A DNA stretch of 32,000 bases from the NCBI RefSeq assembly GCF_000253055.1, contig NC_016070.1, forward strand, positions 510,001 through 542,000, read 5' to 3'. The DNA is from Thermoproteus tenax Kra 1. Its GTDB lineage: Archaea; Thermoproteota; Thermoprotei; Thermoproteales; Thermoproteaceae. The notes under the pieces were generated by a model, which worked only from the letters and a program-made list of their open reading frames with translations, did not search any database and was not told the DNA's origin. Shown here in pieces: positions 5,972 through 27,139 of the stretch (the first letter of the stretch is position 1; every line of letters begins with the position of its first letter). Both the position numbers and the translations under genes were made by a program.

Positions 5972-6014
5972 ATGACTCCCTCCCCGCCCTAGAGGGCGAG
6001 GCCTTCGGTTGTAA
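5972..6014 (-). repeat. conserved hairpin element, copy a
   Basis: The plus strand reads atgactccctCCCCGCCCtagaGGGCGAGGccttcggttgtaa (stem 5982-5989 / 5994-6001). On the minus strand it folds as CCUCGCCC/GGGCGGGG with one U-G wobble. It lies about 15 nt downstream of the stop of the minus-strand GINS-like gene. Confidence 0.8.
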
Positions 6015-6028
6015 GCCAGGTGAGCTCT

Positions 6029-6508
6029 CTATAACAATCTCAGCCTCTTTACGATGCCCTTCGCCTCGAGCTCTCTGGCATCCTCGGCGGGTATCTTTGC
6101 TAGATCGCCCCTATTGAAGGGCCCAATCTGTTTAAAGTCGGACGTAGACATTGTGGCGGGAAATCTGTCTAGGAAAACGACGATCTCGTATCTCCTTCTT
6201 TTATCCCTCGCCGGCGCCTCTCTGATCTTGAGTATCGGCGCCAAGAGCCTCTCCTCCTCCGCCGTCAAGTCTCTGGGCTCTCTCCCTTGTTGTACTTCCC
6301 AGAGTATCTTCCTTATCCGCAACTCCATAATGGACGCTATCACGTGCGCCATGTGGGCGCGCACAGTCTCCTCCATTGAGGGCGGTAACGCAACTCCCTT
6401 CAACTGCTCGTTTATCTCGTTGGCGAGCTCCATGTAGGAGGCTACGGGGGGCTTCGTCAACAGCTTTGTGTCCAGCTCGGCCGACAGCCACGAGTACGCC
6501 CTGCTCAC
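6029..6508 (-). CDS. GINS-like replication complex subunit (Gins15/51-like), tentative
   Basis: A 159 aa helical protein immediately downstream of priS in the same operon. This is the arrangement described for gins15-priS in Sulfolobus. The sequence assignment itself is weak. Confidence 0.5.
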   Translation of the reverse strand: MSRAYSWLSAELDTKLLTKPPVASYMELANEINEQLKGVALPPSMEETVRAHMAHVIASIMELRIRKILWEVQQGREPRDLTAEEERLLAPILKIREAPARDKRRRYEIVVFLDRFPATMSTSDFKQIGPFNRGDLAKIPAEDARELEAKGIVKRLRLL

Positions 6509-6538
6509 AACTCCCCCAAAGCGTCCACCTATAAATTT

Positions 6539-7489
6539 TCAGCCTCTTCGCCGCCCTCCCTCTACATCCAAGATCTCGGCCTTCCCTTGCAGATATAGGT
6601 ATATAGCTAGGTAGAGGGGGAGGACGGTCTGCTCTCTGTCTATCCTCACTCCGAGGACTTCCCCGACCCTCTCCTTGAGCTTAACGTAGACCTCGCCTCT
6701 GGTGAACGCTATCGCTTTATTGAGTATATATTCGGCGTCTCTCTCTAAGTCCGACTGCGACAGAGGAAGCGTTATGAAGCCCGTCTTGTTGTTCAGAGAG
6801 CCGGGCGCTCTGATCAGTCTGTGGACGTCCGTGGTGACCACCTCGTCGATTTTGATGAAGTAGTTCCCGTCATGGAGTCCTCTAAATATACGTAACAGAC
6901 TCCCCACAGGCTCCTCTTGATACAGTTTGACGGTCCTCTTACCAACTCTGGTCTCCAATTTGGCGAGGTCGAGGTTGCGGGCAGTCAGGAAGTCAACTAG
7001 GCGCCTCCGCTCGGCCGATGTGAGATCCATGACCTCCTTGGACCTCACGTGGACGTGAAAGCCTCTGTGGCCGGAGTAGACGGGCTCCCCGTTGAGCGCC
7101 AGCTCGTTCCTCAGCGCGTCGAGGAGCTTCAAAGCCTCCTCGCGAGCGTCGTCTAGACACTTGAGGTTCAAGAGCTGCATCCCTCTACAGCTCTCCGTAT
7201 CTAGGTGGTCGCCGTCTATATCGAACACAAGGTCGGCCCCCTGCCAGCCCTTGGCCTCCATGTCTCTCTCGTCGGGCCTCTCGTAGTATGCAACGGAGTA
7301 GTACAAGCCGAGGGGCGGCTCGGAGATACACGCTCTCCTGAGCTCATCTATAGAGGGGAAGGACTTGTGTCGCAACACCACGTTCTCCATGGTCAACATG
7401 CCTATCTCCCTCCTCTCGATATTGGGTATAGATAGTGTGGCCCTCCTATAATGGTTCCTGAACAGAGCCTTGAGCCAAGCCTCCGCCAT
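6539..7489 (-). CDS. priS: DNA primase small (catalytic) subunit PriS
   Basis: 316 aa with the catalytic DLVFDIDGDH and SGHRGFHVHV motifs of archaeo-eukaryotic primases. Confidence 0.9.
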   Translation of the reverse strand: MAEAWLKALFRNHYRRATLSIPNIERREIGMLTMENVVLRHKSFPSIDELRRACISEPPLGLYYSVAYYERPDERDMEAKGWQGADLVFDIDGDHLDTESCRGMQLLNLKCLDDAREEALKLLDALRNELALNGEPVYSGHRGFHVHVRSKEVMDLTSAERRRLVDFLTARNLDLAKLETRVGKRTVKLYQEEPVGSLLRIFRGLHDGNYFIKIDEVVTTDVHRLIRAPGSLNNKTGFITLPLSQSDLERDAEYILNKAIAFTRGEVYVKLKERVGEVLGVRIDREQTVLPLYLAIYLYLQGKAEILDVEGGRRRG

Positions 7490-9394: not shown

Positions 9395-9723
9395 TGGCTG
9401 AGGACAGCAACGACGAGGAGCTGGAGAGACTCCGCGAGAAGAAGTTGAGGGAGCTCCAGGAGCAGGCGGAGGCGCGAAGACGCGCCGAGGAGCTGGCCGC
9501 CCAGAGGAGGTTGGCCCTCAAGCGCATCCTCACTCCCGAGGCGATGGCCCGGCTGGACAACCTCAGAATTGTCAGACCGGAGCTCGTGGAGGCGTTGGAG
9601 CAACAACTGTTGGCGCTCGCCTCTAGCGGGAGAGTAAAGTTGCCGATTACCGACGAGGATCTCAAACAGATCTTGGCCCAGATCTATGAGAAGAGCCGGA
9701 GGGAGTACAGATTTAGGTTTTAG
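9394..9723 (+). CDS. PDCD5/TFAR19-like double-stranded DNA-binding protein
   Basis: 109 aa with a charged coiled N-terminus followed by [28 protein letters not shown]. It shares a TAATG overlap with rps19e and occupies the conserved position between rps19e and rpl39e. Confidence 0.8.
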
Positions 9724-9780
9724 CCCCAGTTCCCCTTATGTGCCGCCGGAACGCTTAAATAATAACCAATATAGCCGCCC

Positions 9781-9936
9781 ATGGCCAGAAACAAGGCGTT
9801 AGGGAGGAAGCTGAGGCTTGCGTCTGCGTTGAAGTCCAATAGAGACCCGCCGGTCTGGGTCAGAGTCAAGACTAAGAATAGAGTGACGCGATCTCCTGCG
9901 AGGAGGAATTGGCGTAGGGTCAAGTTGAAGGCTTAA
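9781..9936 (+). CDS. rpl39e: 50S ribosomal protein L39e (eL39)
   Basis: Not in the ORF track because it is only 51 aa. My translation is [56 protein letters not shown]-like cttaaataataa lies at 9754-9765. The position between the PDCD5-like gene and rpl31e is as expected. Confidence 0.85.
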
Positions 9937-9959
9937 AAACGCGGTCTTTGAGAGCCACC

Positions 9960-10235
9960 ATGGCCGAAGAGGTCAAAGTCTTGGCCACAAGGGAGTACAG
10001 AATAAGTCTCAGAAGGGCCTACTACGCCGCCCGTACGCGCAGGGCGAGGAGGGCAGTGGCGTTAATCAGAGAGTTTGTATCGAGGCATATCAAGGTGGAC
10101 CCAAAGAGTGTAAAGCTTGATCCGGCCCTCAACGAGTTCGTCTGGTCGAGGAGCCGGGAGAAGCCGCCTAGATACGTCGACGTAGTTGTGGAGAAGCGTA
10201 GCGACGGCACCGCTCTAGTCAAGCTCAAGCAGTAA
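9960..10235 (+). CDS. rpl31e: 50S ribosomal protein L31e (eL31)
   Basis: [23 protein letters not shown]...[17 protein letters not shown], typical of L31e. ATG 9960 is preferred over the track's TTG 9948. Confidence 0.85.
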
Positions 10236-10585
10236 TGGATCCAATAAAGGCGCTACGGTACCGGTTCACTAGGTATTGTGTAAATAGGGCCTACGTCAAC
10301 ATAGACCTATCAAACAAGTCGGCTGAGTTCATCAACTTCCTTGACGACCTAGTGGAGGACATCAGGGATTTGGAGAAGGTCCTAGAGGAGGATCCCTCCA
10401 AGATCGACGAAATATTCACAGTCACCCTGTTGGAAAAGTTCAATGAGCTCAAAGAGAGGGATAGAGAGGTCGCCAAAGCTTTCTTCAGCAATATTCTGAG
10501 AAACTGCCTAGATCTTGAGGAAGTAGCCGAGAGCCCTCTGGGAAGAACCATATACGAGCTCTTGGCCAAGATCGAGCAAAGTTGA
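10235..10585 (+). CDS. hypothetical acidic helical protein (116 aa)
   Basis: The ATG overlaps the rpl31e stop (TAATG at 10233-10237). GC is about 50%, below the background. No motif recognised. Confidence 0.5.
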   Translation: MDPIKALRYRFTRYCVNRAYVNIDLSNKSAEFINFLDDLVEDIRDLEKVLEEDPSKIDEIFTVTLLEKFNELKERDREVAKAFFSNILRNCLDLEEVAESPLGRTIYELLAKIEQS

Positions 10586-10605
10586 TTTTAAAGATGAGAC
10601 TGTAA

Positions 10606-11826
10606 GTGCGGACGCTGTTGCAGGCTCCCCCAGGTTTCGGCAAAACTCGAATCCTGGCCCGCCTTGCCGTTAGGACTGGGGCAAAAACGGTGTTCTTCGT
10701 CCGATCCCATGGGGAGGCTCTACAGGCCCACCGCTATATCTCCGAGCTCGGCGGCCGCGCATCGCTCGCCTTCGGTCGTGCAACCTTGTGTAAATATGGA
10801 GCTAGAACTCTGGGCGACTGTATATCTTTAAGGGAGAGGGGCATCTGTAAAGTAAAATATAAATACATAAATAAAATATTTTATAATTTTGAAGAAATAT
10901 ATAAAGAGAAAATATGTCCATATGAATATTTTCAATCTATAAGTAGACAAGGCAATATTACGATATTGCCAATGTCATATTTAGAGAGCCAAGAGTACTT
11001 GGCTGGGGTGGCCGACTTAATCAGAGAGAGCGAGCTCGTGATAATAGATGAATTTCACAACGTGCTCCTTAATGATCTGACCGCGGAGAGGGATCTGCCA
11101 TCAAGCGCCTACTGTGATTATGGGCTGAAGCGGTGCCTCCTGATGCCGTTTCTAAGGGAGCTGATAGGGGATAGAGATCTCTTTGCGACCACAGCGTCTA
11201 TACCAGAAAAATTTTCAGAGATATTTGTAAATTTCTTTAGTTTAGAATATATAAATAAAGATAATATTTTTTATGAAAATTTAATAATTGATATTTTTCC
11301 AATAAAAATAAGATATAATAATAGAAATAAAAATCAAATTATTAATATAATTTATAAAATAGTTTCAAAAATATTCAATGACTATAAAAAATTAATTATA
11401 TTTATACCTAATAAAAGCCTCTTGAGCTACTATAAGGCCAAGTTCAAGCATCTCCCCGTGTCTGAAGTCCCATTGGGGGATGTTCCCCAAGTGATTTTGA
11501 CCTACTATAACAGCCCTCTTTCCGAGGGCCTTAATATAGATGTGGATTCAGCCGTCCTAATAGGTTTTCCCTTCCCCAATATAACAGATAAATGGCTTAA
11601 AATAAAAATAAATTTTATTGAAAAACTTGGATATAATGGATTTAAATATGTTTATCTTTTCGCTGCTGTCAGCTCCGCAATTCAGGCGATGGGTAGAGCC
11701 ATGCGCGAGCTAGATAGGCGCGTCAAATACATAGCTGCTATCGATGACAGGTTCTGGCACTACCGCAACTATATGCCCGATTGGTTCAAAAGGACGGCCG
11801 TACTGAGGGATGCTCCCAGTTTATGA
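10606..11826 (+). CDS. minimal XPD/Rad3/DinG-family SF2 helicase with a putative Fe-S Cys cluster
   Basis: 406 aa. Motifs seen: Walker A QAPPGFGKT; four Cys (C-x9-C-x8-C-x22-C, ending in CPYEYF) between motifs I and II; motif II IIDEFHN; motif IV-like LIIFIPNKSLL; motif V SPLSEGLNIDVDSAVLIGFPFPN; motif VI QAMGRAMRE. It is much shorter than canonical XPD and contains three AT-rich in-frame patches. Confidence 0.75.
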   Translation: MRTLLQAPPGFGKTRILARLAVRTGAKTVFFVRSHGEALQAHRYISELGGRASLAFGRATLCKYGARTLGDCISLRERGICKVKYKYINKIFYNFEEIYKEKICPYEYFQSISRQGNITILPMSYLESQEYLAGVADLIRESELVIIDEFHNVLLNDLTAERDLPSSAYCDYGLKRCLLMPFLRELIGDRDLFATTASIPEKFSEIFVNFFSLEYINKDNIFYENLIIDIFPIKIRYNNRNKNQIINIIYKIVSKIFNDYKKLIIFIPNKSLLSYYKAKFKHLPVSEVPLGDVPQVILTYYNSPLSEGLNIDVDSAVLIGFPFPNITDKWLKIKINFIEKLGYNGFKYVYLFAAVSSAIQAMGRAMRELDRRVKYIAAIDDRFWHYRNYMPDWFKRTAVLRDAPSL

Positions 11827-11831
11827 CATCG

Positions 11832-11866
11832 CAAACGGCAAGCCTCGCCCTTAAGGGCGAGGGTGA
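11832..11866 (+). repeat. conserved hairpin element, copy e
   Basis: caaacggcaagCCTCGCCCttaaGGGCGAGGgtga: a perfect 8 bp palindromic stem (11843-11850 / 11855-11862). The element begins 6 nt after the helicase stop codon (11824-11826); the stem itself begins 17 nt after it. Confidence 0.8.
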
Positions 11867-11884
11867 ATTTAAGCATCTATATTT
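11866..11884 (+). promoter_or_regulatory. TATA-like region upstream of the island operon
   Basis: aatttaagcatctatattttt lies between hairpin copy e and ATG 11888. It is the only AT-rich stretch before the GC-rich block. Confidence 0.4.
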
Positions 11885-11887
11885 TTC

Positions 11888-12313
11888 ATGGCGGAGCTAG
11901 TGAAGACAGCGAGAGGGGGGAGCAGGGGCGAGCCCCAACGAGGGGCGGCCCAGCGGTGGATGGGGCGGCCCAGACTAAGGGCGTCCTGGAGGACGGGGGA
12001 GGGGCGCTGCGGATATACGGCGATCGGAGGGCCCGCCGGGATGCTCCGGGAGGCCGCGCCGGAGGTCTACGCGGGCTATCCCAAATGCGCGGCGTATGAG
12101 GGGCTGAGCGAGTACAGAGCCGACGTCTGGGGCCGCCGAAGGCCTCTGCAGAGGCCTGGGGAGGCGCTGGCCGGGCGCTGGATAGGGCTGTACGTCGAGG
12201 GCGGATGCAGCACGTCCACGCCGAGAGGGATAGAGGCGTGCCGCCCGGCGTCGGGCGGGTCAACCACGAGGGGGGACAACGGGCGAGGTCGCAACGGTGC
12301 GGATCCCGCATGA
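11888..12313 (+). CDS. GC-rich (about 75%) ORF encoding a Gly/Arg-rich 141 aa product; coding status uncertain
   Basis: This frame shows codon-like periodicity (G-rich first position, G/C third position). Its stop overlaps the ATPase start as ATGA (12310-12313). However, other frames on both strands also carry long ORFs here because stop codons are rare at this GC, and the product is R/G/P-rich. Confidence 0.35.
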   Translation: MAELVKTARGGSRGEPQRGAAQRWMGRPRLRASWRTGEGRCGYTAIGGPAGMLREAAPEVYAGYPKCAAYEGLSEYRADVWGRRRPLQRPGEALAGRWIGLYVEGGCSTSTPRGIEACRPASGGSTTRGDNGRGRNGADPA

Positions 12314-13224
12314 GCGGGGATGGGGTCGTAGACCTCTTGCTTCTCCCGCTGGTGCTTCTGTTGATCTTGACACTACTCTGGAGGGAGGGCGAGGTCTTAA
12401 TAGGCATCGGAGGCGCTGGATTACTATATCTGCCTCTAGATAAACATATAACGATAATTGGTCCCACTAGGTCGGGTAAGACGAGGCTCGCGAAAAAGAT
12501 AGCAAAGCGGTCTGGCGCAAAGGTCATAGTACTTGACTGGAATGGGGAGTATGATCTAGGGCTGAGGGTCAAGGCCCAAAACCTAAAAATTAATATAAGT
12601 AAATTAAATAAAAAAATATTGGTAGAGCTAATTGGATTATCTATAAATTTAAATGAACCATCAATTTATTTTATGTATAGAGCAATTAGAGATTACCAGA
12701 TAAAGAGCCCCCGGGACCTTATTAGGGCGTTGGACTCCTATTTGACTACGACGAAGAGCGAGACTGAGATGAAGGCTGCAATACTTAGGCGCTTGGAGTA
12801 CGTCTTCGATATAATTAGTAATGGAAAAATAAATGTAGAGAAAATAGTCAAAAGCCGTAGGAGCTTCACGATCGATCTCTCAGACTTATCCCTTGTGGAG
12901 GAAAAGGTTCTTATATCTTCATTGATTTTAACATACATATATAATTACTTTCGAAAATCAAATATAAGTAAAAAAATAAAATTGATAATCATAATGGAGG
13001 AGTCTCAAAACTTAGTCAATGCGGCAATAATTCGACACCTGTTCGCAGAGATCGCAAAATATGGAGTACGTGTGGTCATGGTATCAAACGTGATACCTCC
13101 CCCTGAGATGATCGTGCATTCAAACGTAGTTATTGTGAAGCCGCATACACTATATGATTTAAAAATAAATAAATCTTCAATAATAATAAATGATAAAATA
13201 TATAGAGTTTATAAATTTTTATGA
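12310..13224 (+). CDS. membrane-anchored HerA/FtsK-like (DUF87-type) P-loop ATPase
   Basis: About 304 aa. It has an N-terminal hydrophobic helix VVDLLLLPLVLLLILTLLW, Walker A IIGPTRSGKT, the HerA-like VIVLDWNGEY segment and Walker B LIIIMEESQN. ATG 12310 is preferred over the track's 12205, which lies in the GC-rich block. Confidence 0.7.
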   Translation: MSGDGVVDLLLLPLVLLLILTLLWREGEVLIGIGGAGLLYLPLDKHITIIGPTRSGKTRLAKKIAKRSGAKVIVLDWNGEYDLGLRVKAQNLKINISKLNKKILVELIGLSINLNEPSIYFMYRAIRDYQIKSPRDLIRALDSYLTTTKSETEMKAAILRRLEYVFDIISNGKINVEKIVKSRRSFTIDLSDLSLVEEKVLISSLILTYIYNYFRKSNISKKIKLIIIMEESQNLVNAAIIRHLFAEIAKYGVRVVMVSNVIPPPEMIVHSNVVIVKPHTLYDLKINKSSIIINDKIYRVYKFL

Positions 13225-13436
13225 TAAAATCAAATTATAAGAAAATATATGAACAAATTATAAAAATACTAGAGGAATTGAACGTAGATATAGAGGAGCT
13301 TTCGCCCTGTGAAATATATCTAAATTATTTAAATTATAAGCTTTCATATATAGAAAGAATTCTTTATAATTTAATGGAAAAAATTAATTTTATTGAAAAT
13401 AGATGTGATAAGAATAGAAAAGAAATATATAAATAG
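13221..13436 (+). CDS. hypothetical small helical protein (71 aa), very AT-rich
   Basis: ATGA overlap with the ATPase stop (13221-13224). The composition is K/N/I/Y/E-rich. Confidence 0.45.
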   Translation: MIKSNYKKIYEQIIKILEELNVDIEELSPCEIYLNYLNYKLSYIERILYNLMEKINFIENRCDKNRKEIYK

Positions 13437-13447
13437 TACTTATATTA

Positions 13448-13819
13448 TTGAGCAATATGGAGGGCTTTCGTACAATTTACAAATACTCTGAGAAACTAGA
13501 CTCCTATGCAATAAAAAGAATCATTATTAAATTTTTGCAAGATCAAACTAAAAATGCAAAGGGAAATCTTATAACATTTAGGCCATCTAAAATCGCCCAA
13601 GATTTAAGCATATACAGCCGAAAGGATGTCCGCGCTAAGACTGTGATGATTAGAGGATTTTTGGACGAGCTAGTCCACCGCGGCTACATTGCCGTCATCA
13701 AAAGGAGCGCTCGGGGCAAGGTGTACGGCCTCTATAGAAGCGGAAAGCTGTGGGACCTCTTAGACAAATACGAGACAGATAAAGTCCTCGAGATCTTGGA
13801 GTCGGAAAAGCTACAATAA
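13448..13819 (+). CDS. putative winged-helix DNA-binding protein
   Basis: 123 aa. The segment FRPSKIAQDLSI...VMIRGFLDELVHRGYIAVIKRSARGKVYGLY resembles helix-turn-helix plus a beta wing. ATG 13457 is an alternative start. Confidence 0.5.
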   Translation: MSNMEGFRTIYKYSEKLDSYAIKRIIIKFLQDQTKNAKGNLITFRPSKIAQDLSIYSRKDVRAKTVMIRGFLDELVHRGYIAVIKRSARGKVYGLYRSGKLWDLLDKYETDKVLEILESEKLQ

Positions 13820-13854
13820 TTGCTTCCAATTTATTCTCAGAAGTTTTTTCTACA

Positions 13855-14832
13855 GTGTCCTACGGCGGCCGAGCGATCGAGGAGAGTCCAACTGAGGATA
13901 AATCTATTATAAATTTATTAAGATCTAAAAAGTTAGATAAAGTCTTAATATTAACAGAACTTCGTAAAATTGTACAGAGAGATAAATATAATGTAGCAAT
14001 TGTTGGGGTCTGGAGCAAGGGGCGTCTTGTCGAGCCCCGCGAGTTCAAGATAAACCCAGTGGTGCTACTATTGCCTTTCATCATCTCGATACCGCCCACG
14101 TTGATACTACATCATTTATACTTCCAGATGATCTCAGGCATCTCTGCAATAATATCTAGTAATATATTTATATTTTTTTATTTAAAAAATAAATGTATAA
14201 TTCCTGATTATATTACAATAATAAAAACAAATTATAACGATTTTGAATTTTTAAGGAAAAACAAAGAGAGGATTTTGGCCGATCCCGAGATCTTGGGCAC
14301 CGAGTTTGAGGTCTACCACTTCAAGCCGAAGAACTTATGCTTAGTCAAAGATAAGGCTGCTAACGCCATGGCCTATGAGTCCCCTATGGGGAGGCTCATC
14401 GTCGTCACCACCGGCCTTGTGGCCAAGCTGGCGCCAGAGGAGTTGGAGGCCGCCCTGAGGCACGAGGAGGGCCACATCAAATATAGACATATGTATAAAC
14501 TCATGGCCTTCCTTATCAGTGAATATATCCTAAGGGTCTATCTGCTGAACCTAGTATATACTAACATCTCATTCTACCTCATCGGGATCCATCTGTTGGG
14601 GGCCTCCCTGCTCTATACCTCCCTCGTCAGGCTCTACGAGTATGAGGCCGATAAATACGCAGCATCTCCACACTTGGCCAGAGCGTTGCTCAAAATAGAT
14701 TGGAACAATATGGTTGATGATGTATTACATCCGATTTACTCAAGGCTCAGATTTCTGGTGAAAACTCACCCTAATACGTTGGATAGAGTAGTGAGGATAT
14801 GGACTTTATCAGAGATCTCGCCAAAGCGTTAG
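13855..14832 (+). CDS. membrane-bound M48-family (HtpX/BlaR1-like) Zn metalloprotease
   Basis: 325 aa. It has HEEGH in ...ELEAALRHEEGHIKYRH, a downstream EYEADKYA (the third-ligand Glu motif of M48) and a C-terminal THPNTLDRVVRI. Hydrophobic TM stretches lie before and between the motifs. GTG start, with an AT-rich aatttattc about 23 nt upstream. Confidence 0.75.
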   Translation: MSYGGRAIEESPTEDKSIINLLRSKKLDKVLILTELRKIVQRDKYNVAIVGVWSKGRLVEPREFKINPVVLLLPFIISIPPTLILHHLYFQMISGISAIISSNIFIFFYLKNKCIIPDYITIIKTNYNDFEFLRKNKERILADPEILGTEFEVYHFKPKNLCLVKDKAANAMAYESPMGRLIVVTTGLVAKLAPEELEAALRHEEGHIKYRHMYKLMAFLISEYILRVYLLNLVYTNISFYLIGIHLLGASLLYTSLVRLYEYEADKYAASPHLARALLKIDWNNMVDDVLHPIYSRLRFLVKTHPNTLDRVVRIWTLSEISPKR

Positions 14833-15205: not shown

Positions 15206-15250
<45 letters not shown>

Positions 15251-20814: not shown

Positions 20815-21371
20815 CCCTCTCCCCGCCTTGAAGGGCGAGGCTTTCGGTTGTAATCTGGGCAGTTCCTCTCAGCCTCCCTCAACAGCTCGCCCAACTTAAA
20901 CAGGGCGGACCTGTAGACCTCCAGCTCCCTCAACAGAGCCTTATAGTCGGCCTCAGGTAGGTCGACCTCTTCGCCGAATGTAAGCTTGGCGAGGGCAGAG
21001 AGGGCCCCTCCTGTCAATTTCTCGTAGAACTCTACCAACGATTTGATTCTGGACTCAAATATGTAGTAGTCGTTGAGTAGCCTCATGACTTCGCTCTTGC
21101 TCAAGACTACGCTGCATTCATACGCCTGGAGCAAAGTCCTTATGGCCTCTGCCGTAGTCTTGCCGACAGCCTTGATGAAGCTCGGGCTCTCCAACTTGGA
21201 CTTGAGCAAAGATGCCGCGTCCTTCGCATTCATAGCTCCATTCTGCGGCGTTGGCCCCCTCCGAGGGGAGCCCGCCCGCCGCTCCCGTCTTGCAACTGTG
21301 GACGGAGGGTCCCGGGCCACTGGGGGCCCGTGTTCGTCCCCAGCTCGCCGGGACCCGGGATAACGGCTCAT
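20787..21371 (-). CDS. hypothetical helical protein; N-terminal 46 codons are GC-rich and of uncertain coding status
   Basis: The helical core runs from ATG 21233 (MNAKDAASLL...). The upstream in-frame part from ATG 21371 is R/P/G-rich. A TATA-like gcttaaaagc at 21390-21399 fits a transcript starting near 21371. The last ~25 codons (about 17 read through hairpin copy c) overlap spt4 by 28 nt. Confidence 0.5.
   Translation of the reverse strand: MSRYPGSRRAGDEHGPPVARDPPSTVARRERRAGSPRRGPTPQNGAMNAKDAASLLKSKLESPSFIKAVGKTTAEAIRTLLQAYECSVVLSKSEVMRLLNDYYIFESRIKSLVEFYEKLTGGALSALAKLTFGEEVDLPEADYKALLRELEVYRSALFKLGELLREAERNCPDYNRKPRPSRRGEGHSSTNSNA
20811..20859 (-). repeat. conserved hairpin element, copy c
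   Basis: The plus strand reads atgaccctctCCCCGCCttgaaGGGCGAGGctttcggttgtaatctgggc (hairpin 20821-20840). The copy starts in the last 4 nt of spt4 and lies inside the 3' end of minus-strand ORF 20787..21371. Confidence 0.8.
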
Positions 21372-21485: not shown

Positions 21486-24200
21486 GTGTGGGAGGAGGTA
21501 CCCACTCTGTTGATAGCGGCTGCGGCAATCATTTTGGCCATAGCGGCAGTCGTGCTCGGCTACTTCAACCCCCAGGCTCCCGCAGACTACGCATACGCCG
21601 AGGTGGCCCCCATCGTTAAACCGTACAATTCGACGTTCGTCTACATAGGCGCAGTGGGCCGCAACGCCACTGTGACCGAGGTGTCGTACATATACGGCGG
21701 CAGAACCTACACGTTCGCCGTCGACAGACTCGCTCCCCCCCCCCCCCCCAACGGGACATGGCTCGCGGTGGTTCCGTGCGGGGCGAACGTCACCGTCGTC
21801 GCGAGGTACGGCGTAGCCACAAGGGCGCAGACCTGGACTCCCGTGTGTATAAATAGGCCGCAGAAGGTCGTGAGCTACAGCGAGGAGGCCATCAGGGAGC
21901 TTACGGAGTTCGCCAGCTTTGTGGCTCAGTACACGCTCTACAAGTCGATACCTGTGTTGGGCGCATACCTCCGTTTTGGCTCAGTGGAGACGTGGATAAA
22001 GAACATAGGCCCGTTCCCCTACTGGGCAGCCATACCGTCGCGCAATATACCCACTCTCATACTAGAGCCGGGCGAGGGCTTCAGGCTGGACGACTTCACA
22101 ACAACCGTCACCGGCACAGTGTACCGCTGGGTCTACACAGCCGGCATACTTGAGGGCAACCGCCTCACCCTATGGATAAACGGCGTACTCGCCTATAACG
22201 GCACAGTGACCAACGGCATGACGATATATGCGCCGCAGGGATATGAGCTAAAATACATCAACGGCTATCTGGTACCCATCTATAACGGCGCTCCGATCTA
22301 TAATGGCACTTCAGTCAAGAGCAACACCAGCAATACGGTGATCTATAAAACAACGATCAAAGGCTCAGTGATATCTACGCCGCAGGGGTACAACGTAACA
22401 ATAATATTGAGCACGCCCCTTGGTATCGCCTATTTCTATAACGGCACGGCGATATATACGTCACAGGGGTACGAGATAACAATCGACGTACCTCTTCTCA
22501 CCCGCATCCACTCCGGACCACCGGTCGTCGGATCGCCGATCGGTGGATCACCAGTTGGTAACACTGGCAGTGGAGCATCACAGCCCATGATAATATGTAA
22601 CGTGATGATATATGCGTCATCGTATACGCCATCGAATTCTCCAACCTATGTGGCGATACCTGCGAACGGAAGCTGGATGGGCTGGCTCAAATTCGATAAT
22701 GCCCCACTGCCGGTTTCGCCGTTGAGCGAAACGTTGAACATATACGTCATGCCCTCCTCGCCCAATTACACAAGCTCCCTCTTCGGCCTCATACCGCCGT
22801 GGAGGACGTACATGCTCACCGTGAACCCCACGACCGGCGAGGCCTCCTGGTACGACCCCCAGTGCAACGCGATTAACTACTCATGCCTCCGCACAGCCTA
22901 TGTCTCGAACAACTCCGTCCTCTATATAAACGACATGCCGGGCGGGGAGGTGGTGGCCATCGGGAAGTACTTCGTGGTGGGAGTCGGACAGCTAGTGTCG
23001 TATCGGGATACCTATGGCAACGTCCATTATGGAGTCACTATACTGTGGTATCCGTGGGGCGGCGCCAGAGAAGTTATAAATGATGGTAACTCGTTGTGGA
23101 ATGATTTCGGCAACGGCCTCTACACGTGTTACTATAGCGCCTATTACCCAGACCAAAATATTGTGTTCTTCGATGGATTTGAGAGAAACAGCTATACCGT
23201 GGTCTGTGCGATTGGAGGACTGTGGATACAGGGCGGCCTCTTTGGGGGACAGCATGTTGTATCGTTTACTGCCACAGCCTATCCCAACTACACTCTGGTA
23301 GTTACAGAAAACGGCAAAGAGATAGGCTCTGTTACATTCAACCCGAGCCAGTTCCCGCCAGCCCCGCCTATGTTCGTGACATATTCGAAGCCCGCGTCGA
23401 ACTCGCTCCCTGTGGCCGTCCGGTTTGGATCAGACAACTACGTCCAGCTTGTGCCGTTCACCGATAGCAATACTTACGCAGGCTATATCTCCGATGCCAC
23501 CGGCAACTACGGCCTCGGCACGCTCATCTACAAACAGACGTACGACCTCACCGGCGCGTACAATTACACCCTAGTTTTGCAGGGCTATGAATCAAGAAGA
23601 CTCATTAAGACGTATAGGGAGTACGGCGAAGTCGATATACCCCTCAATTTTGTACCTGCAGGTCCTCAGGTCACGATTCAATACAATGGAAAGTGGATAA
23701 CTTGTCCTGTTAAAGTGAAATATTCCCCTGGTAGTATATATCCTCAATACTACTGTGCAATGTATGGATATTATAATGTCTATGTCTATAACATCACTGT
23801 AGTCGAGCAATTGACGCTATACCTCTTCGGGAAGCCTGTCGCGTACGACGCCCTTATGGGCTCTTACGTGTACACTACAGAGACGCCGGTTCCTGTGAGA
23901 CCGCTACAAATAACGATAAAGCCGATCTGTACCCCCACGAAGAGATTGCTTGGCGGAGCTGCGGTGTCCCGATTGGAGGGCAATAATACGTTGGTGACGT
24001 ACTTCAACGAGACGATACAGGTGACCGGATGCGGGCAGGACTACACGTATTATGAGCCCGTGAAGGTCGCTACCTCTATGGTAAACGGTGCAGACTACGT
24101 TAGGGATCCCTACACCGGCCAGCTGTGCAGTTATCCGTATACGACGCAGGATAATCAAACTGGTTGGCTAACTTGCAATAACGGGCGGAGACCAACCTAA
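21486..24200 (+). CDS. large N-terminally membrane-anchored surface glycoprotein candidate
   Basis: 904 aa with an N-terminal hydrophobic helix TLLIAAAAIILAIAAVVLGYF. It is rich in Y, T, N, G and V, with about 19 N-x-S/T sequons by hand count. Short recurring motifs are present (PQGYELKY, PQGYNVTI, SQGYEITI, IYNGA/IYNGT). Confidence 0.7.
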   Translation: MWEEVPTLLIAAAAIILAIAAVVLGYFNPQAPADYAYAEVAPIVKPYNSTFVYIGAVGRNATVTEVSYIYGGRTYTFAVDRLAPPPPPNGTWLAVVPCGANVTVVARYGVATRAQTWTPVCINRPQKVVSYSEEAIRELTEFASFVAQYTLYKSIPVLGAYLRFGSVETWIKNIGPFPYWAAIPSRNIPTLILEPGEGFRLDDFTTTVTGTVYRWVYTAGILEGNRLTLWINGVLAYNGTVTNGMTIYAPQGYELKYINGYLVPIYNGAPIYNGTSVKSNTSNTVIYKTTIKGSVISTPQGYNVTIILSTPLGIAYFYNGTAIYTSQGYEITIDVPLLTRIHSGPPVVGSPIGGSPVGNTGSGASQPMIICNVMIYASSYTPSNSPTYVAIPANGSWMGWLKFDNAPLPVSPLSETLNIYVMPSSPNYTSSLFGLIPPWRTYMLTVNPTTGEASWYDPQCNAINYSCLRTAYVSNNSVLYINDMPGGEVVAIGKYFVVGVGQLVSYRDTYGNVHYGVTILWYPWGGAREVINDGNSLWNDFGNGLYTCYYSAYYPDQNIVFFDGFERNSYTVVCAIGGLWIQGGLFGGQHVVSFTATAYPNYTLVVTENGKEIGSVTFNPSQFPPAPPMFVTYSKPASNSLPVAVRFGSDNYVQLVPFTDSNTYAGYISDATGNYGLGTLIYKQTYDLTGAYNYTLVLQGYESRRLIKTYREYGEVDIPLNFVPAGPQVTIQYNGKWITCPVKVKYSPGSIYPQYYCAMYGYYNVYVYNITVVEQLTLYLFGKPVAYDALMGSYVYTTETPVPVRPLQITIKPICTPTKRLLGGAAVSRLEGNNTLVTYFNETIQVTGCGQDYTYYEPVKVATSMVNGADYVRDPYTGQLCSYPYTTQDNQTGWLTCNNGRRPT
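21735..21749 (+). repeat. C15 homopolymer tract (encodes five Pro in frame)
   Basis: 15 consecutive C inside ORF 21486..24200, starting on a codon boundary (gct ccc x5 aac). Confidence 0.95.
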
Positions 24201-24215
24201 ATCAGCAAACAACGG

Positions 24216-24239
24216 TTTTTTACGCTCTCCCTCTTTTTT
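24216..24239 (+). terminator. two oligo-T tracts after the first surface-protein gene
   Basis: T6 at 24216-24221 and T6 at 24234-24239, between stop 24200 and ATG 24243. Oligo-T is the usual archaeal termination signal. Confidence 0.4.
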
Positions 24240-24242
24240 CTT

Positions 24243-26828
24243 ATGAGAACGTTGTTGCTAGCGATGTTGCTGACGGCGGCTCTGGCGCTGGCTACGACGT
24301 TCCAGATGTACGAGTTGGGCGGTCCGAGGCATCTCGTTTGGGTGACCATAAACGGGCAGACGGAGAACATATTGGCAGTTCTGCAGGAGTTCTGGCCGAA
24401 CACAGTGCTGTTCCCTGTAGGAGGTATCTACTGGCTCAACACCACGAACCCGACCGAGGCGAGGTACACCATCTTCCCTGCGTACGCCGTCTCACCGTGG
24501 CTCCCCAACGGCAGCCTCATCAATGTGACGTTCACGAGGGCCGAGGCGCTGTTCAACGTCTCCGGCGACCTCCTCAAGAGAGTGAGGTGGGGGATGTACA
24601 CCTTCATCTACAACATCGCCACCCAGGAGGGCACCAGCCCGGCGGAGATACTCCAGGAGCAGAACCCCTTCGTCTCATATGGGCTACAGGTCGTGCTGAA
24701 GGAGGAACCGCAGAAGCCGATACTGGACTGCTTGAGCTACGTGGGGAACAACAGCCTGCCGAGCTTTTGGAGCAGTCCGGGGACGGTCTGGTCCCGCTAC
24801 CACATTCCGTTTAAGCTGTACAATGTGACCTGCCCGGGCAACACGTCATATATAGACATCATCGACGTGGAGTACCGCTGGTGGTACGACGGAGGGAGCA
24901 TGTTGTGCCTCGATTGGCTCTGGTTCAGGCAGAGGGAGTGGTACCTCTCGGGCGGAAGGTATGACATCTTCGGAATCTACCTCCCGAGGTGGGAGGCGCT
25001 GATAAACCAGACAGAACAGCTCTTCAGCGAGCTCTTCAGTGAATCCATTAAAACTACCAACCAAACGCTCAGCCAAGAGCTGTCGAACGAAGCGATACAG
25101 CTCATTTATAAATTACGTGCCATGGAGTCGGCCTCAGACTGCGTCAACTTCAGCGGACTCCCGAGGAACATCACGGCCGTCGTCGGAGGCGGGCATCTCA
25201 GGATCTACGTGGACGGCCAACTTATATGGACGTTGAACGTCTCCGGCGTCTTTATATCGCAGCCGTATTCGGCCGTCGACTGGTTCGGCCCATCTCTTAT
25301 GTCCGGCGCCTACTTCTACGTCGACGAGCCGGCGATGGCCACAGCCCCGCTGGGCTCAGCACTGCTGTTCATAGGGAACGACAGCGTCGTCGCCCCGCCC
25401 AAATACGCCACCAATCTGATATACAGCATCGTCTACTTAGTCGCCTCGACCTCCTTCAGCTGGGAGGGAGGGCTCTCGGTGGGCCCGGGCGAGACGAACG
25501 AGACGTACGTCTACGTCAGGCCGGACGTGAACGCCACGATATACGGCCGCCCCGCCCGCCTGCCCTACATGGCGATAATCTCGCTCGGCTGGCTCAGGGA
25601 GAGGTACTGCCCGTACGGCGACCTGGTCCTCTCGGGCGCGTACAGGAGGATAGGGGGCTCCATCGAGGTGCTGGGCCCCGTCTCTATATCGTGCACCGAG
25701 TACCCAGTGCGCTTCATACTGCCGAACGGCTCCTCGGTCCCGGTGGTCGCGAGGGCGAACTCCACCGTCCGCCTCCCGCCTCTGGCCGTGGACCTGGGCA
25801 ACGGGACGCGTTTGGTCACAGCCGAGGTGGAGGTCAACGCGACGGGCCCCGCGGACGTCGTAGTGCCCGTCGCCCAGCGCCTCTACCGCGTGGAGGTGGA
25901 GACGCCCGTCGGCGTAAACGCCACCTGGGCCCCGGCCGGCGCCGCGATTAAGCTGTCCACCGTAACGCTCCCCAACGGCACCCGGTACGTCCCCATCGCG
26001 CCTGTGGCCGTGAACGTGACCGGGCCGATCGCCGTTGCGCCTAGGTACGAGAGGCAGTACCTCGTCCGCCTCATAGCCCCGGCCAACTCCACGGAGGAGT
26101 GGGCGGACGAGGGGGCCCTCTTCAACGTAACGCTGGCCGACCCGTGGATAGTCGGAAACGGCACCATGTTCTCCGGCCTCCTCGTGAACGGGACCGGGGA
26201 GAGGAGCTGGCGCGTCGTAAAGCCGATAACGCTCGTGGCGGGCTACGCCGAGGTCTACTACTGGGTCTCCGTCGAAACGCCCGTCAACAGAACCGCGGGC
26301 TGGATGCCCAAGGGCGCGGTCCTCGCCTTCCCGGACGTCCTCGACCTCGGCAACGGGACGCGCCTCGTGGGCCCGTCAGTCCAGCGCGTGGTGGTGGAGG
26401 GGCCCGCCAACGTCTCGGTCGCGTACGCAGAGAGGCAGTACTACGTCCAGATAGAGGGCGTCGAGGAGTGGAGCGGGTGGGCCGACGCTGGCTCCGCGCT
26501 GAGGCTGAACTCCACCGTGGTGGACGGAGTGGTCTATAGGCCGCTGGAGGATGTGGTGGTCTCCCGCCCCGGCGTCTACAGGCCGGAGTTCCTCGCCTCC
26601 TACGCGCACGAGTTCAGAGACCTGCTGGGCGTCCCCGACCCGGCCGCGTCGGTGGAGCTCTGCGGCGTGAGGGCCGGCGCCGACCTGGCGGGGAGGGCGT
26701 ACGTGGAGGCCGAGACGGACCGCCTATGCGCGCCGGCTCTCTCGGCCTGGCCCGTCAGCCCGTACACGCTGGCCGCCGTCGCCGCGGCGGCCGCTGCCGC
26801 CTACGCTGCGATCAGGCGGAGGAGGTAG
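24243..26828 (+). CDS. large secreted surface glycoprotein candidate with C-terminal membrane anchor
   Basis: 861 aa. It has a signal-like N-terminus MRTLLLAMLLTAALALATT and a C-terminal PYTLAAVAAAAAAAYAAIRRRR (TM helix plus basic tail). I count about 30 N-x-S/T sequons by hand. The C-terminal half contains repeats of roughly 70-80 aa (Y.V.VETPV..N.TW...GA......LGNGTRLV....V.V.GP..V...Y.RQY). Confidence 0.75.
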   Translation: MRTLLLAMLLTAALALATTFQMYELGGPRHLVWVTINGQTENILAVLQEFWPNTVLFPVGGIYWLNTTNPTEARYTIFPAYAVSPWLPNGSLINVTFTRAEALFNVSGDLLKRVRWGMYTFIYNIATQEGTSPAEILQEQNPFVSYGLQVVLKEEPQKPILDCLSYVGNNSLPSFWSSPGTVWSRYHIPFKLYNVTCPGNTSYIDIIDVEYRWWYDGGSMLCLDWLWFRQREWYLSGGRYDIFGIYLPRWEALINQTEQLFSELFSESIKTTNQTLSQELSNEAIQLIYKLRAMESASDCVNFSGLPRNITAVVGGGHLRIYVDGQLIWTLNVSGVFISQPYSAVDWFGPSLMSGAYFYVDEPAMATAPLGSALLFIGNDSVVAPPKYATNLIYSIVYLVASTSFSWEGGLSVGPGETNETYVYVRPDVNATIYGRPARLPYMAIISLGWLRERYCPYGDLVLSGAYRRIGGSIEVLGPVSISCTEYPVRFILPNGSSVPVVARANSTVRLPPLAVDLGNGTRLVTAEVEVNATGPADVVVPVAQRLYRVEVETPVGVNATWAPAGAAIKLSTVTLPNGTRYVPIAPVAVNVTGPIAVAPRYERQYLVRLIAPANSTEEWADEGALFNVTLADPWIVGNGTMFSGLLVNGTGERSWRVVKPITLVAGYAEVYYWVSVETPVNRTAGWMPKGAVLAFPDVLDLGNGTRLVGPSVQRVVVEGPANVSVAYAERQYYVQIEGVEEWSGWADAGSALRLNSTVVDGVVYRPLEDVVVSRPGVYRPEFLASYAHEFRDLLGVPDPAASVELCGVRAGADLAGRAYVEAETDRLCAPALSAWPVSPYTLAAVAAAAAAAYAAIRRRR

Positions 26829-27094: not shown

Positions 27095-27139
27095 GAAGGC
27101 CTCGCCCTTTAGGGCGGGGTCATTCGGTGAAATCTGGGC
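27095..27139 (+). repeat. conserved hairpin element, copy d
   Basis: gaaggCCTCGCCCtttaGGGCGGGGtcattcggtgaaatctgggcc (stem 27100-27107 / 27112-27119). It shares the extra flank tcggt.g.aatctgggc with copy c. Confidence 0.8.

Follow-up and report, generated by a model that had tools for sequence, protein, structure and literature searches.

The operon TTX_0587 to TTX_0592 of Thermoproteus tenax Kra1, five genes of which carry short and extremely AT-rich patches inside intact reading frames, was examined within a window of 32 kb (genome positions 510,001 to 542,000), and the loci of its relatives were examined over 12 to 21 kb each. A genome coordinate is the window coordinate plus 510,000, and TTX_0587 is listed at 520,606-521,826 in Table S8 of Siebers et al. 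2011 (PMC3189178). According to Table S1 of that paper, "low G+C region 2" of T. tenax, one of three extended low-GC regions in the genome, spans 519,631-524,276 (4,646 nt, 43.2% GC). This region corresponds to positions 9631 to 14276 of the window, for which our recount gave 43.18% GC, matching the published value. The coarse low-GC call is already published, and the region was detected there as one extended block; the text on low-GC regions treats regions 1 and 3 and offers no explanation of region 2. A two-state mosaic at the sub-gene level, a collapse of GC content in the third position of codons (GC3), conservation throughout the genus and absence from Pyrobaculum are not described in the parts of the 2011 paper that concern this region. 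Literature searches (arCOGs, locus tags and intragenic AT-rich patches in hyperthermophiles) returned nothing relevant, and the mosaic, the GC3 collapse, the genus-wide conservation and the absence from Pyrobaculum were not found in them.

Genes and AT-rich patches of the cluster

The cluster is flanked by ribosomal-protein and housekeeping genes, with the PCNA and primase genes ~3 kb upstream. A tRNA scan of the window was negative, and none of the mobility markers of an island (tRNA, integrase or mobility genes) flanked the cluster. The published best hits of the cluster genes are to Pyrobaculum (Siebers et al. 2011, Table S8). TTX_0586 and TTX_0593, two small genes that flank the cluster, form part of the conserved gene order and are without patches.

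All five patched genes lie on the + strand. The product of TTX_0587 (10606-11826; 406 aa) matched Pfam DEAD_2 and Helicase_C_2 above the cut-offs and contained the motifs GFGKT, DEFH and QAMGR. In a profile match to the Sulfolobus tokodaii XPD structure 2VL7, residues 3 to 164 corresponded to HD1 and the iron-sulfur (FeS) domain and residues 238 to 386 to HD2. Residues C62, C72, C81 and C104 were invariant in nine homologues, in a region that aligns to the XPD FeS domain. There was no match to the Arch domain, and only ~70 residues (165-237) separated the aligned blocks, compared with ~160 in XPD; the score against the TIGR00604 rad3 model was 44, with a cut-off of 247. On these matches, TTX_0587 is a predicted truncated XPD/Rad3-like FeS helicase without the Arch domain. 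The product of TTX_0588 (12310-13224, with an annotated start at 12337) is an ATPase of the HerA/FtsK-like type and has a hydrophobic N-terminus; it matched Pfam DUF87 (PF01935) at 45.3 bits (cut-off, 23.2) and has the motifs GPTRSGKT (Walker A) and LIIIMEE (Walker B). An assignment of this protein as CedD was rejected, as the NCBIfam hit was weak (72 bits; cut-off, 600). Searches with PADLOC and NCBIfam detected only generic DinG and HerA similarity and gave no defense-system assignment.

The third gene, TTX_0589 (13221-13436), is a 71-aa open reading frame (ORF) with a GC content of 0.19. It is followed by TTX_0591 (13448-13819), encoding a predicted winged-helix (wHTH) DNA-binding protein of 123 aa, for which an AlphaFold2 model had a pLDDT of 83 and a wHTH topology. 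Comparison of this model with PDB folds gave weak, generic winged-helix matches (E ~1e-2), the top ones being the C-terminal winged-helix domains of kleisins (Scc1, ScpA and JetA), and hence no functional conclusion was drawn from them. TTX_0591 was 86% to 94% identical across Thermoproteus, exceeding the neighboring S19e gene (82% to 87%), and 57% to 72% identical to Pyrobaculum homologues; it is a neighbor of the membrane HerA-like ATPase. Identities between T. tenax and its relatives were lower for the helicase, the ATPase and the M48 protease (57% to 64%, compared with 82% to 87% for the adjoining S19e). The last of these is encoded by TTX_0592 (13855-14832), an HtpX-like M48 membrane metalloprotease with a match to Pfam Peptidase_M48 (PF01435) at 59.8 bits (cut-off, 20.3) and an HEEGH motif at residue 203.

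Segmentation of the window by a two-state Viterbi procedure (states of 15% and 55% GC) yielded ten AT segments between 10848 and 14265, with lengths of 45 to 270 nt, a total of 1,271 nt and GC contents of 0.09 to 0.21; no AT-state positions were assigned elsewhere in the window. Three of these segments lie in the helicase gene, namely, patch A (10848-10983; GC, 0.18) in the FeS-cluster domain, patch B (11207-11416; GC, 0.10) at residues ~201 to 271 and patch C (11578-11660; GC, 0.16) in HD2. The ATPase gene carries four patches, at 12584-12695 (GC, 0.17), at 12809-12853 (a short one; GC, 0.18), at 12911-12995 (GC, 0.14), which ends at the Walker B motif, and at 13151-13268 (GC, 0.09), which runs from the C-terminal end of the ATPase into the start of TTX_0589. 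The largest patch (13312-13580; GC, 0.21) takes in the remainder of TTX_0589 together with the N-terminal third of TTX_0591. Two patches were located in TTX_0592, one N-terminal (13898-13992; GC, 0.18) and one at residues ~98 to 137 (14148-14265; GC, 0.12).

The contrast with the surrounding DNA was sharp. In a 100-nt profile, GC content dropped to 0.07 to 0.15 in the patches, compared with a mean of 0.568 (standard deviation, 0.065; minimum, 0.31) in the rest of the window, and composition switched over 20 to 30 nt at the patch borders. All three codon positions were shifted, with GC3 values of 0.00 to 0.15 in the patches and 0.6 to 0.9 beside them. An original prediction, made from the sequence alone, had listed nine AT-rich intervals interrupting intact frames; these nearly coincided with the ten segments, and the mosaic was confirmed by the sliding GC profile and by GC3. 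Its hand counts of G+C (17 of 180 nt at 11221-11400 and 92 of 120 nt at 11941-12060) were exact. The frames were indeed intact: two in-frame stops were found within the patches, both of them true gene ends, compared with 130 off-frame stops. Given the patch composition, the chance of the frames staying open was ~1e-22.6, which indicated that the genes are under purifying selection. The expected placement of motifs also held, with Walker A, DEFH, motif VI and HEEGH lying outside the patches at local GC contents of 0.44 to 0.60 and the ATPase Walker B lying inside one (GC, 0.24); one cysteine motif of the FeS cluster, CPYE, was likewise within a patch (GC, 0.22).

Distribution in relatives and substitution regime

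The cluster was compared with that of Thermoproteus sp. GCA_038881835.1 (L001), with those of fifteen further Thermoproteaceae (L002 to L016, including Thermoproteus sp. AZ2 as L006 and Pyrobaculum oguniense TE7 as L008) and with two more distant loci (L017 and L018) located through wHTH homologues. T. tenax and the seven other Thermoproteus loci (L001 to L007) provided eight Thermoproteus lineages for codon alignments. The gene order o116-o122 was conserved in Thermoproteus and Pyrobaculum, with orthologues in the same order at all Thermoproteus loci and most Pyrobaculum loci; the upstream ribosomal-protein genes were also shared by Thermoproteus. At the P. oguniense TE7 locus, from 6001-7188 onward, only adjacent homologues of o116 and the helicase were found by tblastn, and the operon seems to have been divided or lost in part, as the ATPase, wHTH and M48 genes are not downstream of the helicase gene.

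Patches were present in 7 of 7 other Thermoproteus loci, mostly at homologous positions, with 840 to 1360 nt of AT-state DNA in 6 to 12 segments. In Pyrobaculum, orthologues were GC normal at the patch positions except for one AT segment of ~170 nt at the TTX_0589 homologue. No AT-state segments were detected in L017 or L018, and no indels were found at patches in the orthologue alignments. The combination of normal GC content in Pyrobaculum, patches in all Thermoproteus lineages and the absence of indels indicated that the patches are in-place substitutions, derived within the genus, in a vertically inherited and functional operon and that the AT regime dates back to the stem lineage of Thermoproteus. 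The original prediction had proposed looking for the same residues encoded at normal GC in related genomes. The outcome was split: this was the case in Pyrobaculum, but every Thermoproteus lineage was patched, mostly at the same positions. An assembly chimera, also considered there, was excluded as the source by the presence of patches in seven independent assemblies.

The AT regime has been kept through all of the sampled divergence of the genus, while patches have grown, shrunk, appeared and vanished in single lineages. Patch A was of full size only in T. tenax and in Thermoproteus sp. AZ2, the other Thermoproteus lineages having a dip of ~20 codons. Patch B was found in all eight lineages, with a 5' border that was similar throughout and a variable 3' border. 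Most Thermoproteus lineages had the ATPase patch at 12584-12695, which was less pronounced in L001 and L007. Every Thermoproteus locus with an M48 gene had the patch at 14148-14265. Patch C and the N-terminal M48 patch were restricted to T. tenax, which lacks an extra M48 patch at residues ~220 to 250 present in other Thermoproteus lineages. Within the DNA examined, the AT regime was confined to this one operon. In the flanks, no 100-nt window had a GC content below 25% save at L002 1440-1637 and in a short intergenic stretch at L002 11922-12036. The former scores 0% GC and most likely represents masked N bases in the stored contig rather than an AT patch.

TTX_0589, at the center of the cluster, was conserved by tblastn at nearly all Thermoproteus and Pyrobaculum loci, with no gene called at this position in L001. 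As it was the only part of the cluster that was AT rich in Pyrobaculum too (~20% to 30% GC; for example, L009 8135-8304 and L014 8130-8302), TTX_0589 may represent an ancestral nucleus for the AT patches. Patch positions in general matched segments that were slightly GC poorer in Pyrobaculum (0.47 compared with 0.56; Spearman coefficients of 0.33 to 0.76 per gene), which suggested that a small ancestral difference in composition was amplified.

Comparison of unchanged residues demonstrated that DNA composition, rather than protein sequence, is what the force acts on. For residues identical to the Pyrobaculum majority, GC3 within patches (107 columns) was 0.07 in T. tenax, compared with 0.59 in Pyrobaculum, whereas outside patches (210 columns) the values were 0.66 and 0.69, respectively. 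The amino acids followed conservatively, most patch replacements being of the L>I, V>I and R>K types. Patches had been predicted to encode stretches rich in K, N, I, Y and F, and the share of F, Y, M, I, N and K (FYMINK) at patch positions was 0.62 in T. tenax, compared with 0.32 in Pyrobaculum.

One explanation put forward in the original prediction was drift of relaxed linker segments under AT-biased mutation, and this was supported only in part. A lack of constraint on linkers does not simply account for the patches: averaged over columns, conservation in patches and outside was 0.66 and 0.72 in Pyrobaculum and 0.67 and 0.71 in Thermoproteus, and the patches take in part of the FeS domain, elements of HD2 and the ATPase Walker B motif. 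In the cluster, GC3 tracked the GC content of the first and second codon positions from 0.07 to ~0.7. Among the window's other ORFs, 28 were taken as genes, and in these GC3 was near 0.70 whatever the local GC content of these positions, even where it was below 0.30. Since AT-prone windows of other genes hold GC3 near 0.7, something locus specific is needed.

Substitutions at third positions were polarized by parsimony within three close pairs. In patches, changes from G or C to A or T (S>W) numbered 0.40 per S site and the reverse changes (W>S) 0.087 per W site, compared with 0.127 and 0.269, respectively, outside patches. At face value, this near-symmetric, approximately threefold shift has two readings. 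Either there is one AT-biased mutation process throughout and a GC-favoring fixation bias is absent from the patches, or there is a fixation bias toward AT within the patches.

Explanations of the AT regime

The explanation that we rank highest, while giving it somewhat less than an even chance, is a self-reinforcing compositional bistability, in which an AT-directed substitution regime operates at the DNA level in thermally unstable domains. T. tenax has a growth optimum of ~86 to 88°C. Growth up to 95°C has been reported in the literature. The predicted melting temperatures, calculated for naked DNA in 0.5 M monovalent salt with an empirical long-duplex formula, were ~70 to 83°C for the patches and 89 to 97°C for the intervening segments. 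Segments tolerating AT-rich codons would have drifted under a local duplex-stability threshold, such that patches in the form of naked DNA would be open at the growth temperature and the rest closed. Breathing DNA would be expected to undergo more C-to-U deamination and could also escape the GC-favoring fixation or repair bias that holds GC3 near 0.7 elsewhere; one example of such a bias is the GC-biased repair of short heteroduplexes formed in recombination, heteroduplexes that would not last in DNA of this kind. In this way, the AT state would be self-reinforcing and inherited, with purifying selection holding the frames open. A suggested reason for the involvement of this operon is that it is the fastest-evolving gene set of the neighborhood and had a pre-existing AT-rich nucleus. 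Bistability was favored because ancestral GC differences were apparently amplified, because the pattern is two-state with lineage-variable borders and because no motif was found.

The AT patches have partial counterparts elsewhere. In the reduced genomes of endosymbionts (Buchnera, Carsonella and Zinderia), GC3 is near 5% to 10%, FYMINK residues are enriched, L>I, V>I and R>K replacements are seen and ORFs remain open; low GC3, FYMINK-rich proteins, conservative replacements and frames held by purifying selection are thus common to both. In endosymbionts, however, AT enrichment is genome-wide and tied to the loss of repair genes and to small populations, whereas here it covers ~1.3 kb of one operon in a free-living hyperthermophile of 55% GC. 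Fungal AT-rich blocks arising by repeat-induced point mutation are likewise discrete and sharply bounded in GC-normal DNA. This process, which makes C-to-T changes, targets duplicated DNA and destroys ORFs, but the patches of the cluster are single-copy and have kept their frames; moreover, we know of no such machinery in archaea.

Several points weigh against bistability. The melting temperatures leave out reverse gyrase, chromatin proteins and polyamines, and the melting, deamination and recombination parts of the mechanism are steps that we infer. A purely physical feedback should act genome-wide in AT-tolerant genes, and only three extended low-GC regions are given in the genome paper (Siebers et al. 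2011). Parallel changes bias the parsimony counts, causing more W>S than S>W changes to be inferred inside patches, and hence mutation bias and fixation bias are inseparable in these data, which describe two regimes only. Transitions accounted for 92% of S>W changes within patches, compared with 82% elsewhere, and this difference is too slight to be meaningful. The near-symmetric shift in rates fits a fixation bias as well as it fits a mutation bias. Furthermore, the N-terminal synonymous sites of TTX_0591 are AT shifted in spite of its 94% conservation, and most patch positions were retained across deep lineages; both observations fit selection for AT-rich DNA equally well.

Such selection, which we consider possible at a lower level of probability than bistability, ranks next and is a close rival, all other explanations being improbable. 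The AT-rich DNA or RNA would be maintained as a cis-acting feature of the operon, with the easily melted or otherwise distinctive DNA performing some function. Selection for AT tracts as internal promoters or nucleoid-protein sites had also been put forward in the original prediction. Candidate roles, which we hold with the same reserve, include a site at which a nucleoid protein, or the wHTH protein and HerA-type ATPase of the operon itself, would bind or load; others are internal archaeal promoters, oligo-T termination, AU-rich mRNA instability throttling expression and a centromere-like mark. Besides the synonymous sites of TTX_0591, this explanation would account for the sharing of most patch positions by all Thermoproteus lineages over a long divergence, for a total AT-state length held within 840 to 1360 nt, for the strict confinement of the effect to one operon and for the location of the patches within ~2.4 kb of an AT-rich nucleus present in Pyrobaculum too. 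S>W gain and W>S loss both change approximately threefold, as a fixation bias predicts. On the other hand, no repeated motif, iteron or palindrome was found in the cluster beyond low-complexity AT similarity, and there was no phasing of AA/TT (A-tracts) at 10 to 11 bp (z of -0.3 to -2.0). Sense-strand oligo-T was not enriched; runs of five or more T residues were few (9, compared with 22 A runs), which indicated that termination signals are not enriched. Borders and whole patches also varied between lineages (patch C, the N-terminal M48 patch and the M48 patch at residues 220 to 250), and Pyrobaculum has the same operon without patches.

A recombination mosaic, in which short conversion tracts from an AT-rich homologous allele (of a virus, a plasmid or another archaeon) entered a GC-normal operon, is improbable. 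Patchwise recombination between diverged alleles had been among the first explanations suggested, and the sharp borders of 20 to 30 nt and the lineage-variable presence of patches would be consistent with it. The patch sizes of 45 to 270 nt also seem to resemble short conversion tracts. However, identity matrices for patch and non-patch columns agreed (r = 0.81 for amino acids and 0.70 for nucleotides) and gave the same closest pairs, AZ2 was the most distant of the eight Thermoproteus lineages by both shared-patch and non-patch columns, and no near-identical patch was shared by any two lineages. A donor search of 5.8 billion proteins recovered ten helicase and 35 wHTH homologues, all of them from Thermoproteus or Pyrobaculum with the exception of one wHTH homologue (P0045; 50% identical) on an unassigned metagenome contig, whose locus, L017, is without patches; viral contigs contained no helicase homologue. 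We also know of no genome that averages 10% to 20% GC at all three codon positions. Interspecies mosaic genes, such as the penA and pbp genes of Neisseria and Streptococcus, likewise have sharp-edged blocks of distinct character within one intact ORF, but these blocks differ in history and have an identifiable donor, whereas the cluster has one history and no donor was found. This single history of patches and flanks and the lack of a donor leave both recombination and import followed by amelioration poorly supported.

The latter, in which the operon as a whole would have come from a low-GC donor long ago and undergone incomplete, patchy amelioration, is slightly less probable still. Horizontally acquired low-GC islands are, like the cluster, locally low in GC within a uniform genome. 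Islands are uniform over whole genes and have foreign best hits, whereas the cluster consists of syntenic Thermoproteaceae genes with blocks of only 45 to 270 nt, and a patch GC content of 9% to 21% is, to our knowledge, below that of any donor genome. As had been predicted, simple acquisition from a low-GC donor was insufficient, since blocks alternate inside syntenic, vertically inherited genes. Gene order is conserved across Thermoproteus and Pyrobaculum, the normal GC content of Pyrobaculum and of deeper relatives implies that AT richness is derived, uniform amelioration cannot leave a GC3 of 0.0 beside one of 0.7 to 0.9 within a single gene, and some patches were gained in single lineages. 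In favor of transfer, the region as a whole has 43.2% GC and is listed as a low-G+C region, and region 1 of the same table, a sugar ABC transporter region with best hits in Sulfolobus, does resemble an import from Sulfolobales (PMC3189178). Overall, the cluster lacks the defining features of islands, of mosaic genes, of endosymbiont AT drift and of fungal AT blocks.

It is very unlikely that the operon harbors a replication origin or some other element for DNA unwinding. The DNA is AT rich and easily melted, the origin of T. tenax is unmapped and the PCNA and primase genes are close by, but low-complexity repeats only, and no ORB-like repeats, were found in the cluster, and ten patches inside ORFs do not resemble one intergenic unwinding element. 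In published T. tenax data, as far as these cover origins, the sole cdc6 gene lies at ~1.6 Mb, with the sole ORB motif near 58.8 kb, while the locus is at 520 kb. The Pyrobaculum calidifontis homologue, Pcal_1977, is numbered far from the genes at the four proposed origins (Pcal_0001, 0541/0542, 1006/1007 and 1820/1821). There was no skew inflection at the locus. No initiator gene (orc1/cdc6 or whiP) adjoins it, and the wHTH protein has generic winged-helix matches only. Protein-level selection for K/N/I/Y/F-rich segments, in spite of the FYMINK-rich peptides that the patches do encode, and an assembly or sequencing artifact were both rejected as scarcely credible: a GC3 of 0.07 at unchanged residues is beyond the reach of amino acid selection, the published 43.2% was reproduced and seven independent assemblies of relatives are also patched, mostly at the same positions.

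A broader statement can be made only as a doubtful proposal. Heritable two-state compositional domains might exist in the chromosome of a hyperthermophile, in which 50 to 300 bp within essential-looking genes have been flipped to 10% to 20% GC, at or below the melting point at growth temperature, and are either self-sustaining (through melting-dependent mutation or lost GC-biased repair) or selected as a permanently open element, inherited for as long as the genus has existed while the proteins adapt around them. The cluster presents two base-composition equilibria (GC3 of ~0.07 and ~0.7) side by side in the same frames, in the same cell and at the same gene-level expression, stable over a genus. 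It thus offers a natural experiment on prokaryotic GC content, in which mutation bias, biased repair or conversion and selection are testable in one operon, and it bears on whether duplex stability constrains sequence evolution at 85 to 95°C. If the patches are functional, they would represent an undescribed kind of archaeal cis-acting site overlapping coding sequence. In practical terms, the patches drive lineage-specific amino acid change and inflate protein divergence, and they can mislead phylogeny and tests of selection.

A GC-rich insertion, a repeated hairpin and two large ORFs

The stretch of 77% GC had been taken in the original prediction as part of the mosaic within ORFs. It belongs instead to an intergenic GC-rich insertion of 483 nt between TTX_0587 and TTX_0588 (11827-12309, + strand; 69% GC, with 73% to 77% in the core). 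The insertion was absent from the seven other Thermoproteus loci, in which the ATPase start is directly 3' of the helicase stop. In the 2011 annotation, there is a 511-nt gap without a gene at this position (Siebers et al. 2011, Table S8; PMC3189178), and RefSeq has a 141-aa ORF for a hypothetical protein (WP_052883092.1). The only homologue of this ORF among 5.8 billion proteins was CCC81635.1 of T. tenax (88% identical over 104 aa), which is encoded elsewhere in the genome on the same 1.84-Mb record. Six differences were present in the first 97 aligned residues, and these were single-nucleotide transitions when worked out by hand. Absence from other Thermoproteus loci together with a second copy in T. 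tenax points to a low-copy, T. tenax-specific inserted repeat, which is separate from the AT-patch phenomenon; it has the appearance of a low-copy element of a mobile or repeat type. The fold z-scores of the insertion were -2.3 (+ strand) and -1.7 (- strand). Rfam searches of the whole window, and of the insertion at permissive E-values, gave no match at the gathering or E-value threshold except to the terminal hairpin. The insertion was also considered as a permuted signal recognition particle (SRP) RNA of T. tenax, and this was rejected, as Plagens et al. put the SRP RNA between TTX_0683 and TTX_0684, outside the window.

A GC-rich hairpin, CCTCGCCCTTAAGGGCGAGG (11843-11862, + strand), lies directly 3' of the helicase stop at the start of the insertion and is followed by an AT-rich, TATA-like stretch. 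Its consensus, approximately CCYCGCCC-TNNA-GGGCGRGG, occurred in five intergenic copies in the window (5982-6001, 11843-11862, 15216-15235, 20821-20840 and 27100-27119), compared with 0.01 expected. Four of the copies were placed against ORFs, and all four were just 3' of an ORF. No exact match to the hairpin was found at the relatives' loci. The hairpin resembles the 3' hairpin of the Rfam families sot0042 and HgcC and may be a terminator-like or REP-like element.

Elsewhere in the window, two large ORFs of 904 and 861 aa without a Pfam match were located at 21486-26828, between the Rpb7/Spt4 genes and glmS; only ~0.4 kb is present in their place in L001. The 3' half of the gene for the 861-aa protein has a GC content of 65% to 78%. 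In each of the two proteins, the N-terminus is hydrophobic and N-x-S/T glycosylation sequons are numerous, and the second ends with a hydrophobic anchor followed by RRRR. By these features, they look like T. tenax-specific surface or S-layer-type glycoproteins.

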